Positions 32,773 through 60,630 of a stretch of 64,000 bases of DNA are shown here, piece by piece. The stretch covers positions 239,347 to 303,346 of the forward strand of contig CAJXMO010000002.1 of the NCBI GenBank assembly GCA_913056495.1. The letters run 5' to 3'. Made by a program: the position numbers and the translations under genes. The first letter of the stretch is position 1. Each line of letters begins with the position of its first letter. Below the pieces are notes generated by a model. That model had not been told where the DNA came from. It saw nothing but the letters and a program-made list of their open reading frames with translations, and searched no databases. This DNA comes from an uncultured Alteromonadaceae bacterium (lineage in GTDB: Bacteria; Pseudomonadota; Gammaproteobacteria; Enterobacterales; Alteromonadaceae).

Positions 32773-33225
32773 TTAAAGACCTGCGTTTTGCTTTTCTTTA
32801 ATCTCGGCCAGTGTTTTACAGTCAATACATAAATCAGCTGTTGGTCTGGCTTCAAGTCGGCGTATGCCTATTTCAACGCCGCACTCTTCACAATAACCAA
32901 AATCTTCATTTTCAATTAACTGTAGCGTCTTCTCGATTTTTTTAATCAGTTTACGCTCACGGTCGCGAGTTCTTAACTCCAGACTAAATTCTTCTTCCTG
33001 TGACGCTCGGTCAACGGGATCCGGGAAATTAGCTGCTTCGTCTTGCATATGGTGCATGGTTTTATCAACCTCTGCACGTAATTGGCTGCGCCAGGTGGTC
33101 AGTATCTTTTTGAAATGCTCTAACTGCTTCTCATTCATATACTCCTCACCAGCTTCAATCTGGTAAGGTTGTAGACCTGCTTGAGCAATTATGCCAGTTG
33201 CTTTATTTTTTGTGCCAGCGGGCAT
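32773..33225 (-). CDS. dksA: RNA polymerase-binding factor DksA
   Basis: [10 protein letters not shown]; C4 zinc finger CEECG...CIDC; start at MPAG. Confidence 0.97.
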
Positions 33226-33487
33226 CTCACTTCTCCTAATCAATCGCCAGCTTATTGCTAGACGGCTATCTATATCAAAAACAATCTGAGTAAGCAATCT
33301 AATTATTAACAATTATTAATTTATAGGCATTAATCATAAATAAAGCCAATTTTATTGCTTATCAGTGTTTATACCTAAACCACTTGAGGCCATGTAATTA
33401 AGTTGCTCAGGTATGTCGAGCGCACTGAGTACATCAATGATGGGCTAGATATAGGGATGAAATTTGATTTTTCAAATAGATAAAATG

Positions 33488-33683
33488 AAAAAACGCCTCC
33501 GAAGAGGCGTTTTTTGAACGGTTAGCTGCATCCTAATTTGCGTCCTGCTATTTCCCTGGAATTAGTATCCTACTAAAACTTGCTCCTAGCATGTCCGTTT
33601 CCATTCTGCTTTTATCCTAAAAGCCTGACTTCCTGCCAGTTCCTTTTTGTTTCCATAAAGTCCGTTACTGATTGCGTCCTGCG
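33488..33683 (-). ncRNA. CsrB/Rsm-family CsrA-sequestering small RNA
   Basis: 13 GGA motifs in ~150 nt, several in hairpin loops (CTTTT-AGGAT-AAAAG, TTAGT-AGGAT-ACTAA, CTGGC-AGGAA-GTCAG); strong terminator 33488-33515; -10 TATTAT at 33690-33695; no ORF. Confidence 0.85.
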
Positions 33684-33840
33684 AGATAAATAATAGAAAA
33701 CTGGTCAAATAATGGTAGCCATTAAATACATTTAATTTTCTTTAGAATTTAATTAATTTAAAAATATGTATTTAAAAACAATAGTTTAAATAATAATCAG
33801 ACAAAGTCGGTAGTCACAAGAGTTTAAAAGCAGTCAGCTT

Positions 33841-33858
33841 ATGCAGAGATATCTTACA
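33841..33858 (-). promoter_or_regulatory. UvrY/GacA box upstream of the Csr sRNA
   Basis: Minus strand TGTAAGATATCTCTGCAT resembles TGTAAG-N6-CTTACA; ~160 bp upstream of the predicted TSS. Confidence 0.65.
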
Positions 33859-33880
33859 AAGTGGCGGGGGAATTAGGAGC

Positions 33881-33910
33881 AAAATACTCAGACACTTGTC
33901 TGAGTATTTT
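33881..33910 (-). terminator. Terminator of yceJ-yceI
   Basis: AAAATACTCAGAC-ACTT-GTCTGAGTATTTT. Confidence 0.8.
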
Positions 33911-33925
33911 AAGTATCAATTTAGT

Positions 33926-34513
33926 TTATTGACGAATCCCTTCAATGTGTAAATCTAAATACACATGAGTAGAAGCTGGCCCTAGATTAAAATCGATACC
34001 ATAATCTTTTAATGCAAATTCGGTTGTACCACTGAAACCTGCACGGTAGCCACCCCATGGATCTTTACCTTCACCAATTTTTTCAGCCATAATTGTCAAG
34101 TCATTGGTGACACCATTGAGGGTAAATTTACCTTTTACTTCAAGCTGTCCGTTGGCAGCAGGCTTAATCGAGGTACTTTCAAATGTTGCCTTTGGAAATT
34201 TGTCGACTGTCAGAAAATCATCACCACGTAAATGTTTGTCACGCTCTGCATGGTTTGTATCTACGCTAGTCGTATCTATATTTACAAGAATTTTTGCCTT
34301 TTCGATATTCTCTTTATCGTATTCAAAATTGCCGTCAAAAGAGTTAAAGCGACCCTGCAACCAACTATATCCTAAATGTTGAACCTTAAAGTTTATTGAA
34401 GCATGAGCGCCTTTCTGGTCATCATCGATAAGGTAATTAGCGGCTAATGCAGAGCCGGATAATGCGGCATAAGCTAAGCCAGTCATGAGCGTTTTTTTCA
34501 GTACGTTGCGCAT
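33926..34513 (-). CDS. yceI: YceI-family periplasmic lipid/polyisoprenoid-binding protein
   Basis: Signal peptide; HLGYS, RDKHLR, DPWGGYRAGF. Confidence 0.92.
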   Translation of the reverse strand: MRNVLKKTLMTGLAYAALSGSALAANYLIDDDQKGAHASINFKVQHLGYSWLQGRFNSFDGNFEYDKENIEKAKILVNIDTTSVDTNHAERDKHLRGDDFLTVDKFPKATFESTSIKPAANGQLEVKGKFTLNGVTNDLTIMAEKIGEGKDPWGGYRAGFSGTTEFALKDYGIDFNLGPASTHVYLDLHIEGIRQ

Positions 34514-58371: not shown

Positions 58372-60630
58372 ATGAAGTTTCGTTTTCCTGTCATTATTAT
58401 TGATGAAGATTTCCGCTCTGAAAATATTTCAGGCTCAGGTATTCGTGATCTGGCTGATGCCATCGGGCAGCACGGAATGGAAGTAATTGGATTTACCAGT
58501 TATGGAGATTTAAGCGCATTTGCACAGCAATCCAGTCGCGCATCTTGCTTTATTTTATCAATTGATGATGAAGAGTTTGGTGAAGGTTTTGAAGCCGATA
58601 TCGAAAAAGCGGTTGCGCCTATTCGTCAGTTTATCAGCGAAGTTCGCAAGCGTAATGCCGATATTCCGGTATTTTTATATGGTGAAACCAAAACGTCACG
58701 CAATATTCCGAATGATGTATTACGTGAATTACATGGGTTTATTCATATGTTTGAAGATACGCCCGAATTTGTTGCGCGCCATATTATCCGTGAAGCAAAA
58801 AAATATATGGATGCACTGGCGCCTCCGTTTTTCAATGCACTGGTCCATTATGCTGAAGACAGTTCTTATTCATGGCATTGTCCGGGGCATTCAGGTGGCG
58901 TAGCCTTTTTAAAAAGCCCGGTTGGGCAAATGTTTCATCAGTTTTTTGGTGAAAATATGCTGCGTGCGGATGTCTGTAATGCCGTTGATGAACTCGGGCA
59001 ATTACTCGATCATACCGGACCTGTTGCCGCCAGTGAGCAAAATGCAGCGCGCATTTTTAATTGTGATCATTTATTTTTTGTGACCAATGGCACTTCTACC
59101 TCTAACAAAATTGTTTGGCATTCTACTGTGGCGGCCGGGGATATTGTGGTGGTGGATCGTAATTGCCATAAATCCATTTTGCATTCGATTATTATGACAG
59201 GTGCAATTCCGGTCTTTTTAATGCCGACCCGCAATAATTACGGCATTATCGGACCTATCCCTAAATCAGAATTCAGTCTTGAATCGATTGAGAAAAAAAT
59301 TGCGGCGAATCCGTTTGCGCGCAACGCTAAGTGTAAAAAACCGAGAATTTTAACCATTACTCAAAGCACTTATGATGGCGTGGTCTATAACGTTGAAATG
59401 ATCAAATCTATGCTCAATAATCAGGTTGATACACTGCATTTTGACGAAGCTTGGTTACCCCATGCGACGTTTCACGAGTTTTATAAAGATATGCATGCAA
59501 TTAGTAAAGGCGGTGAGCGTGCTGATGATGCTCTGGTATTTGCGACTCAGTCAACACATAAGTTATTAGCGGGTTTATCTCAGGCGTCACAAATTCTGGT
59601 GCAAAATGGTCAAAACCGGACGCTGGATACACATCGTTTTAATGAATCCTATTTAATGCATACATCGACCAGCCCTCAATACTCAATTATTGCATCCTGT
59701 GATGTTGCAGCCGCTATGATGGAAGGCCCAGGCGGCCGCGCTTTGGTTGAAGAATCGATTCTGGAAGCGATTGATTTTCGTCGAGCGATGCGAAAAGTGG
59801 ATGCCGAATTCGGTGAAAATGACTGGTGGTTTAAAGTTTGGGGACCGGATCAACTCGCTGAAGAGGGTATCGGAGAGCGGGATGACTGGGTAATACATTC
59901 ATCTGATGACTGGCATGGATTTGGCGAGATAGAATCCGGATTTAATATGCTGGATCCGATTAAAGCAACCATTATCACTCCGGGGCTGAATTTAAACGGT
60001 GATTTTGATGAGTTGGGTATTCCGGCTGCAGTCGTCAGTAAATATTTATCTGAGCATGGGATTATTATTGAAAAAACCGGACTGTATTCATTTTTTATTA
60101 TGTTTACCATTGGCATTACCAAAGGTCGCTGGAATTCTATGGTGACTGAGCTACAGCAATTTAAAGATGATTATGATCAAAACCTGGCTTTATGGCGGGT
60201 GATGCCGGAATTTGTTGGCAAATATCCTCAGTATGAGCGAGTTGGTTTGCGAGATTTATGTCAGCGAATTCATCAAATGTACAAGCAATATGATGTGGCT
60301 CGCATTACGACACAAATGTATTTATCAGAAATAGAAACCGCAATGATCCCATCTGATGCCTGGGCTAAAATGGCGCACCGGGAAGTTGAGCGGGTGTCTA
60401 TTGATGACATTGAAGGACGCATTACCGCTATGCTGGTAACGCCTTATCCTCCGGGTATCCCGCTGATGGTACCGGGAGAAAGATTCAATGAAACGATTAT
60501 TCAATACCTTAAATTTGCCCGTGATTTTAATACGGCGCTGCCCGGATTTGAAACCGATGTACACGGCTTAATTAAACTGACGCAGGATGGAAAAACTGGA
60601 TATTTTGTCGATGTTGTAAAAGAAGATTAA
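58372..60630 (+). CDS. Lysine/arginine/ornithine decarboxylase (LAOdc family)
   Basis: Wing domain; WHCPGHSGG, TNGTSTSNK, DEAW, QSTHK (PLP Lys), PYPPGIP. Confidence 0.93.
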   Translation: MKFRFPVIIIDEDFRSENISGSGIRDLADAIGQHGMEVIGFTSYGDLSAFAQQSSRASCFILSIDDEEFGEGFEADIEKAVAPIRQFISEVRKRNADIPVFLYGETKTSRNIPNDVLRELHGFIHMFEDTPEFVARHIIREAKKYMDALAPPFFNALVHYAEDSSYSWHCPGHSGGVAFLKSPVGQMFHQFFGENMLRADVCNAVDELGQLLDHTGPVAASEQNAARIFNCDHLFFVTNGTSTSNKIVWHSTVAAGDIVVVDRNCHKSILHSIIMTGAIPVFLMPTRNNYGIIGPIPKSEFSLESIEKKIAANPFARNAKCKKPRILTITQSTYDGVVYNVEMIKSMLNNQVDTLHFDEAWLPHATFHEFYKDMHAISKGGERADDALVFATQSTHKLLAGLSQASQILVQNGQNRTLDTHRFNESYLMHTSTSPQYSIIASCDVAAAMMEGPGGRALVEESILEAIDFRRAMRKVDAEFGENDWWFKVWGPDQLAEEGIGERDDWVIHSSDDWHGFGEIESGFNMLDPIKATIITPGLNLNGDFDELGIPAAVVSKYLSEHGIIIEKTGLYSFFIMFTIGITKGRWNSMVTELQQFKDDYDQNLALWRVMPEFVGKYPQYERVGLRDLCQRIHQMYKQYDVARITTQMYLSEIETAMIPSDAWAKMAHREVERVSIDDIEGRITAMLVTPYPPGIPLMVPGERFNETIIQYLKFARDFNTALPGFETDVHGLIKLTQDGKTGYFVDVVKED

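Follow-up and report, generated by a model that had tools for sequence, protein, structure and literature searches.

What does the gap between yceI and dksA encode in this uncultured Alteromonadaceae bacterium? Within the 64,000-nt stretch of DNA analyzed here (the window), the minus strand of this gap is crowded with GGA motifs, and a first-pass annotation had read it as an unannotated sponge RNA of the CsrB/Rsm type. The locus is very probably the gene for a ~196-nt non-coding RNA of the minus strand, which would belong to the Csr/Rsm sponge class and titrate CsrA. The evidence obtained directly consists of the enrichment and strand bias of the motif, the terminator, the conservation of the locus with covarying hairpins, the fixed spacing of an upstream box and the presence of the partner genes. 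Published criteria for such sRNAs comprise an intergenic position, a high density of AGGA/ARGGA, a Rho-independent terminator, GGA motifs in loops and a UvrY/GacA site (Kulkarni et al. 2006, PMC1488887). All of these sequence features are found at the locus, supporting the claimed architecture of a CsrA-titrating RNA.

The proteins encoded on either side both score above their NCBIfam cut-offs, which identifies the flanking genes as dksA and yceI, as they had been named. The predicted sRNA gene lies between the two and is thus intergenic in the sense of Kulkarni et al. (2006). The elements of this region are:

Gap between yceI and dksA, minus strand (same strand as dksA): predicted sRNA gene, intergenic
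32773-33225: dksA, matching DksA TIGR02420 with 172 bits (NCBIfam cut-off 115)
33926-34513: yceI, matching YceI NF002994 with 278 bits (NCBIfam cut-off 232)
~33245-33300, minus strand: conserved promoter-like block of dksA, TTGCTTACTCAGATTGTTTTTGATATAGAT (TTGCTTACTCA...GATATAGAT), followed by the SD GGAG and the ATG at 33225

The DksA protein of the window is 95% identical to DksA of Catenovulum sp. SX2, which points to a Catenovulum or a closely related bacterium. The listed start of the dksA ORF (TTG 33312) is probably placed too far upstream, the DksA family match starting at MPAGTK. A further short conserved block, CCCATATA...GGC / CCCTATATCTAGCCCATCATT, occupies ~33430-33470 on the minus strand, 30-60 nt past the sRNA terminator and well upstream of the promoter-like block of dksA. 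It is also found at the matching place in the homologous loci L002, L004, L006, L008, L009 and L011.

Analysis of the motif content confirmed a plus-strand TCC at each of the 13 positions for which a minus-strand GGA had been reported, and revealed a 14th at 33498, in the terminator loop. The segment 33488-33695 (208 nt) therefore carries 14 GGA on the minus strand versus a single one on the plus strand. Eight of the 14 are AGGA and several of the 14 motifs sit within predicted hairpin loops, in line with the earlier description of many motifs as AGGA. The minus strand of the window has on average 1.6 GGA in 208 nt, with its maximum at the sRNA locus. Shuffled 2000 times with dinucleotides preserved, the segment never reaches 14 GGA (shuffle mean 5.3, sd 1.6). 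For A(R)GGA, the locus has 10 motifs per 210 nt compared to a genome mean of 0.48, ranking third in the 4.35-Mb genome, where the second rank is taken by a coding QE repeat; this is the concentration of AGGA/ARGGA described by Kulkarni et al. (2006).

Other GGA peaks were considered and rejected. The genome-wide peaks on contigs C35 and C22 are both coding: the former corresponds to the QE repeat of an exported protein, the latter lies within a molybdopterin-type gene. Inside the window, the second-highest GGA density (9 per 208 nt) is found on the plus strand at 59744-59960, in a long coding region and not in an RNA gene. The sequence there reads as an amino-acid decarboxylase-like gene.

Prediction of promoter, terminator and secondary structure on the minus strand gives the following elements, with alignment A1 comprising the homologues from the same genus:

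33690-33695, minus strand: -10 hexamer TATTAT; the accompanying -35 is weak and the discriminator is rich in A and T; TA[ATG]TAT is invariant in position in 8/8 genus homologues (A1)
33488-33683, minus strand: predicted sRNA transcript of ~196 nt, both ends being deduced
33673-33681, minus strand: 5' GCAGGACGC mini-hairpin, a CsrA-type site, conserved at the 5' ends of the homologues
33625-33639, minus strand: hairpin CTGGC-AGGAA-GTCAG with GGA in the loop (P(unpaired) of GGA 1.0); A1 columns 57-71, compensatory changes in 4/4 pairs
33608-33624, minus strand: hairpin GCTTTTA-GGA-TAAAAGC, present in the MFE and centroid structures (P(unpaired) of GGA 0.99)
33582-33590, minus strand: hairpin GC-TAGGA-GC; A1 columns 105-116, compensatory changes (GC to AU) in 2/3 pairs
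33562-33576, minus strand: hairpin TTAGTA-GGA-TACTAA; A1 columns 120-138, 7/7 pairs compensatory, 94.6% of cells paired
33539-33547, minus strand: 3' GCAGGACGC mini-hairpin; GCAGGA-GC is invariant in 8/8 genus homologues
33488-33527, minus strand: invariant 3' block GCAGCTAACCGT followed by the terminator, in the 8 genus homologues; the block also occurs in genomes G081 and G058 of two other genera
33515-33488, minus strand: intrinsic terminator (terminator scan), 12-bp stem AAAAAACGCCTC/GAGGCGTTTTTT with five G-C pairs, loop TTCG and a T6 tail

Both transcription signals named in the first-pass annotation are present, the TATTAT -10 at 33695-33690 and a 3' GC hairpin with U-tract, which corresponds to the 12-bp terminator stem at 33515-33488. 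Judged from the -10, the sRNA would start at ~33682-33684, and its end would fall in the U-tract of the terminator. In the genus homologues, the -10 is followed by a conserved sRNA 5' end, CGCAGGACGCA or CGTACGGACGCA. The terminator is likewise conserved in the homologues, as expected for the Rho-independent terminator of this class (Kulkarni et al. 2006).

In the predicted ensemble of the window RNA, the GGA motifs are more exposed than the molecule as a whole, with a mean P(unpaired) of 0.65 versus 0.44, and at least five of them occupy predicted hairpin loops, which agrees with the loop or single-strand position described by Kulkarni et al. (2006). In distant homologues, the mean P(unpaired) of GGA falls to 0.36-0.49 and, at 0.36-0.38, is no higher than the RNA average; some GGAs are thus predicted in stems in distant members of the genus, making the loop feature weaker for those species. 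The 5' mini-hairpin GCAGGACGC is similar to the known CsrA SELEX core CARGGAUG. For the three hairpins recovered by RNAalifold, 93.6% of the cells are paired, versus 26-40% after a shift of the 3' partners by 1-3 columns. Double-sided changes occur in 13/14 of their pairs and none of 500 shuffles reaches the observed covariation score, a test that is inflated because the structure was taken from the same alignment of related sequences. Since the MAFFT alignment is imperfect in the 5' half and in the terminator, the covariation claim excludes the terminator and the 5' region.

The Rfam searches bear out the suggestion that standard annotation would miss so diverged an RNA. At gathering thresholds, Rfam 15 gives no match in the whole window. 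A permissive local search of 33300-33950 yields one meaningful match, to CsrB (RF00018), with 30.6 bits and an E-value of 1.1e-6, and this score, against a gathering score of 71, places the locus outside the family as defined by Rfam. The alignment covers the CsrB model end to end, beginning in the 5' GGA hairpins, finishing in the terminator and containing large internal deletions. Clan CL00106 contributes three more matches, all scoring below CsrB at the locus, and the other permissive matches depend essentially on the terminator region. The comparison with the Csr/Rsm covariance models that had been proposed as a check is thus answered in two ways: none of them matches at gathering, but the best match is a sub-threshold one to CsrB. 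The locus does not qualify as CsrC (RF00084) either, as it lies upstream of dksA and not of yihI, and its best clan match is CsrB. A whole-genome search with RF00018 covered 41 relatives and gave matches in four other genera of the family and in eight further genomes of the order, five genomes being above the cut-off. In the nine genomes of the genus, the same CsrB model found no match.

A BLAST search with the locus retrieved the RNA part, without the upstream region, from seven further genomes of the genus, so that the RNA is present in 8/9 in total. Counted from the -10 through the terminator, these homologues are 177-201 nt long, with a mean column identity of 67%; despite this divergence, each keeps 9-14 GGA. 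Common to them are TCCAnGGA, GCAGGAnGC, the invariant GCAGCTAACCGT and a CGCC/GGCG terminator. A covariance model (R1) built from the eight genus sequences was run on 151 genomes of the family, representing 59 genera, and gave scores of 133-192 bits within the genus and 50-54 bits in two other genera. In G081 (53.5 bits), the gene order cybB-yceI-RNA-dksA-gluQ is identical to that of the window, and in G058 (50.2 bits), the RNA adjoins yceI-cybB on a contig that ends before dksA. The RNAs of both genomes carry ~10-12 GGA together with GCAGCTAACCGT, the terminator, a TATTAT -10 and an IHF-like core.

R1 is blind to the CsrB-like RNAs, 300-380 nt in length, found in other genera of the Alteromonadaceae, and to two further GGA-rich loci of this genome, on contigs C1 and C15. 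The CsrB-like RNAs of the other genera are not found beside dksA, yceI, folA or mtnD. As R1 misses these RNAs and their neighbors differ, the window RNA represents a separate sequence family. One genome of the same genus, G002, lacks the dksA-linked sRNA and also has no BLAST match to the large C1 RNA, indicating that the sRNA is dispensable and that the sponge repertoire varies within the genus. The best R1 match in G002 was rejected as spurious, having 21 bits, different neighbors and a sequence that is not GGA-rich.

This distribution bears on whether the segment is a gene for an RNA at all. The first-pass annotation had stated that it holds no ORF; no conserved one exists, but a mechanical 40-aa ORF with a TTG start does, at 33586-33708. 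That the GGA-rich spacer arose by chance or is decaying, or that it codes for a small protein, could be argued from the overlap of this ORF with the region and from the absence of the element in G002. This explanation appears extremely unlikely, given a GGA count that no shuffle attains and an element conserved with compensatory changes across three genera. The 40-aa ORF begins upstream of the sRNA -10 and is conserved in no homologue, and the longest ORFs of the ten homologues, which differ in strand, frame and sequence, reveal no conserved reading frame.

Upstream of the predicted sRNA promoter, the minus strand contains two candidate regulatory sites, the first of which had not been mentioned before:

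33841-33858, minus strand: UvrY/GacA-type box TGTAAGATATCTCTGCAT, with a canonical left half-site and a degenerate right one (CTGCAT versus CTTACA)
33776-33788, minus strand: IHF-like core TAAACTATTGTTT, one mismatch away from the reverse complement of WATCAANNNNTTR, identified by consensus match only

The consensus of the UvrY/GacA box is TGTAAGN6CTTACA (PMC3171408). The window box begins 163 bp upstream of the -10, and TGT[AG]AGA is located 163-177 bp upstream of the -10 in 8/8 genus loci, for instance as TGTAAGAGATCTCTGATA or TGTAAGATATATCTGACA, corresponding to the left half-site and spacer of the consensus. G058 has a perfect palindrome, TGTAAGCTTTTTCTTACA, and G081 retains the right half-site. 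A conserved upstream site of the type required by Kulkarni et al. (2006) is thus found, its right half being degenerate in the present genome. A relaxed IHF pattern, YAAnnnnTTGnTW, in which one position of the reverse-complemented IHF core is loosened, lies 70-72 bp downstream of the start of the box in 7/8 genus loci. For csrB of E. coli and Salmonella, the inverted repeat of 18 nt bound by UvrY/SirA lies within -222 to -142, and a putative IHF site is located between this UvrY site and the promoter (PMC4682653). With its far-upstream inverted repeat and IHF-like site, the sRNA promoter has the csrB layout.

A relaxed version of the box pattern occurs at eight sites genome-wide. GGA-rich DNA is found 150-450 nt downstream at 3/8 of them, with 23, 14 and 12 GGA, versus at most 2 at the other five. 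Such an association would have no ready explanation if the box did not drive GGA-rich RNAs.

The genome encodes the partners of such a system, CsrA together with BarA/UvrY. CsrA matches NF002469 with 120 bits (cut-off 73) and is 95% identical to E. coli CsrA over 57 residues, and the UvrY/SirA/GacA regulator matches NF007018 with 387 bits (cut-off 280) at 66% identity. A full-length BarA-like hybrid kinase is also encoded, with NF008318 as its best family (758 bits, under the 890-bit cut-off).

An alternative reading is a real sRNA with another mode of action, such as base-pairing with mRNAs or binding a different protein, its GGA richness being incidental to CsrA. The GGAs predicted as paired in some distant homologues fit such an RNA, as do the conserved TCCAnGGA and the invariant GCAGCTAACCGT block, to which no role is assigned. 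We nevertheless regard this as very improbable: 10 diverged homologues retain 9-14 GGA per ~190 nt although the sequence around the motifs has drifted, the GCAGGAYGC hairpins fit the CsrA site type, and the CsrA of this genome is nearly that of E. coli. Moreover, the only regulators known to act through the TGTAAG box have Csr/Rsm sRNAs as their chief targets (PMC4682653).

The window RNA, read as a CsrA sponge, has company in the genome, where exactly three loci combine the box with a GGA-rich segment, namely the window locus and those on C1 and C15:

Contig C1, ~41640-40960 (L094 ~960-1640), minus strand: GGA array of ~650 nt with >50 GGA and the box TGTAAGACATTTCCCACA upstream
Contig C15, ~105340-104830 (RNA ~105150-104830; L101), minus strand: RNA candidate of ~300 nt with ~14 GGA, the perfect palindrome TGTAAGAAATGTCTTACA and a terminator

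The C1 array lies between folA and an acireductone-dioxygenase-like gene and includes 4.3 tandem copies of a 43-nt unit. Neither a canonical terminator nor, in a permissive search, an Rfam match is found for it. Six genomes of the genus share its less GGA-rich 3' 190 nt at 76-89%, and the array probably serves the genus as its principal CsrB-like sponge. The C15 RNA is located directly upstream of a YihI homologue, which is the csrC position in E. coli K-12, and a permissive Rfam search gives it no match in the Csr clan. As the other two loci extend over ~650 and ~300 nt, the window RNA is probably the small member of this sibling set.

The position next to dksA calls for a closer look. Among the homologues of the eight genus genomes and the two other genera, those with readable flanks adjoin dksA and/or yceI. 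Within the genus, the RNA is on the dksA strand, ~250 nt upstream, wherever the downstream region was read, and the order yceI-sRNA-dksA holds for 7/8 homologues read, dksA being outside the stretch read in G008. Upstream regions of dksA at 79 other gammaproteobacterial loci mostly lack a GGA-dense segment, and the linkage to dksA is therefore not general.

With the RNA on the same strand and directly upstream of dksA at most of the homologous loci examined, including G081, the GGA segment might be a long regulated leader or attenuator of dksA, in which read-through from the UvrY promoter would give a CsrA-controlled dksA mRNA. In E. coli, a functional link connects DksA with Csr (PMC4682653), and the conserved tandem arrangement makes this the most serious of the rival explanations, albeit one with a slim chance of being correct. 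A strong conserved terminator (12-bp stem and six U) separates the segment from dksA, with ~260 nt between it and the dksA start, and dksA has its own conserved promoter-like block and SD nearer by. The far-upstream box with the IHF site is also the layout of csrB genes. Partial read-through into dksA may occur and would be compatible with the sponge reading.

From the sequence, we infer transcription, dependence on UvrY and IHF, CsrA binding and the stoichiometry of the sponge, and propose the following mechanism. Phosphorylated UvrY, fed by the BarA-like kinase, would bind the TGTAAGA box ~175 bp upstream of the start, with the IHF-like site of the AT-rich spacer probably serving to bend the DNA toward a sigma-70 promoter with a weak -35 and TATTAT as its -10. 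The transcript would stop at the strong intrinsic terminator, ~260 nt short of the dksA start codon. It would present ~13 GGA, many as A(R)GGA, in the loops of short hairpins or in single-stranded spacers. With each CsrA dimer bridging two GGA sites, one RNA could hold ~5-6 dimers, so that CsrA would be titrated off its mRNA targets and free CsrA lowered. Counting against the sponge reading are the CsrB score far under gathering, the degenerate right half-site, the poor -35, the GGAs predicted in stems in distant members of the genus and the absence of the RNA from G002.

The conserved linkage to dksA is the sole mildly unusual aspect of the locus. E. coli DksA directly stimulates csrB transcription (PMC4682653), and a functional coupling may exist here. 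That yceI-sRNA-dksA forms a functional unit linking Csr to the stringent response, through read-through or DksA/ppGpp, nevertheless seems unlikely. If read-through were the route, partial passage of the sponge terminator would put dksA under BarA-UvrY control. If DksA/ppGpp were the route, it would directly activate the adjacent sponge promoter with its AT-rich discriminator, and the small sponge would be the one dedicated to the stringent response among three sponges that divide their inputs.

Taken together, the sequence evidence indicates that the window RNA is a real lineage-specific member of the Csr/Rsm sponges, a solid but unsurprising result. With it, the Csr/Rsm sponge RNAs would gain a sequence family that is not yet catalogued, and the finding suggests that an agar-degrading marine genus of Alteromonadaceae, in which Rfam CsrB finds none, probably runs a three-sponge BarA-UvrY-Csr circuit. 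Annotators gain a covariance-model seed and a box-plus-GGA rule for such genomes, and experimenters gain defined targets in the CsrA control of polysaccharide degradation, biofilm and motility. The understanding of the Csr system is unchanged, lineage-specific sponges having been found repeatedly before.

Among known systems, CsrB1 and CsrB2 of Shewanella oneidensis and predicted Csr sRNAs of Pseudoalteromonas and Colwellia have already been described, with UvrY dependence shown experimentally for the Shewanella RNAs (PMC3171408, PMC1488887). The window RNA resembles CsrB1/CsrB2 in coming from a marine lineage of Alteromonadales type and in its upstream TGTAAGN6CTTACA box. The Shewanella, Pseudoalteromonas and Colwellia RNAs are, however, ~420 nt long, compared to ~196 nt here. 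With RsmY, RsmZ and RsmX of Pseudomonas (RF00195, RF00166, RF02144), it would share the character of a short GacA-dependent sponge with GGA in loops and a terminator. These RNAs have ~110-130 nt and 5-8 sites, and it is CsrB, not they, that gives the best clan match to the window RNA, the other members scoring lower.

CsrB of E. coli and Salmonella (RF00018, clan CL00106) offers the closest set of parallels. Both RNAs display many GGA in short hairpin loops, open at the 5' end with a GGA hairpin, and close at the 3' end with GCAGGA-GC followed by an intrinsic terminator; both genes have an 18-bp UvrY box ~170-190 bp upstream and an IHF-type site between. The window RNA differs in its size (~196 nt and ~13 GGA versus a 356-position Rfam model), in its place in the yceI-dksA gap and in the degenerate right half of its box. 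E. coli CsrB itself has ~369 nt and 18-22 sites. An IHF site is a feature of csrB rather than of csrC (PMC4682653). In size and site number, the window RNA is nearer to E. coli CsrC (RF00084), as a smaller sibling would be, the K-12 csrC record being 246 nt long and directly upstream of yihI; unlike CsrC, it does not hold the csrC position, which is occupied here by the different RNA of contig C15. Vibrio cholerae has three sponge loci (CsrB/C/D), comparable to the three sponge-like loci of the present genome.
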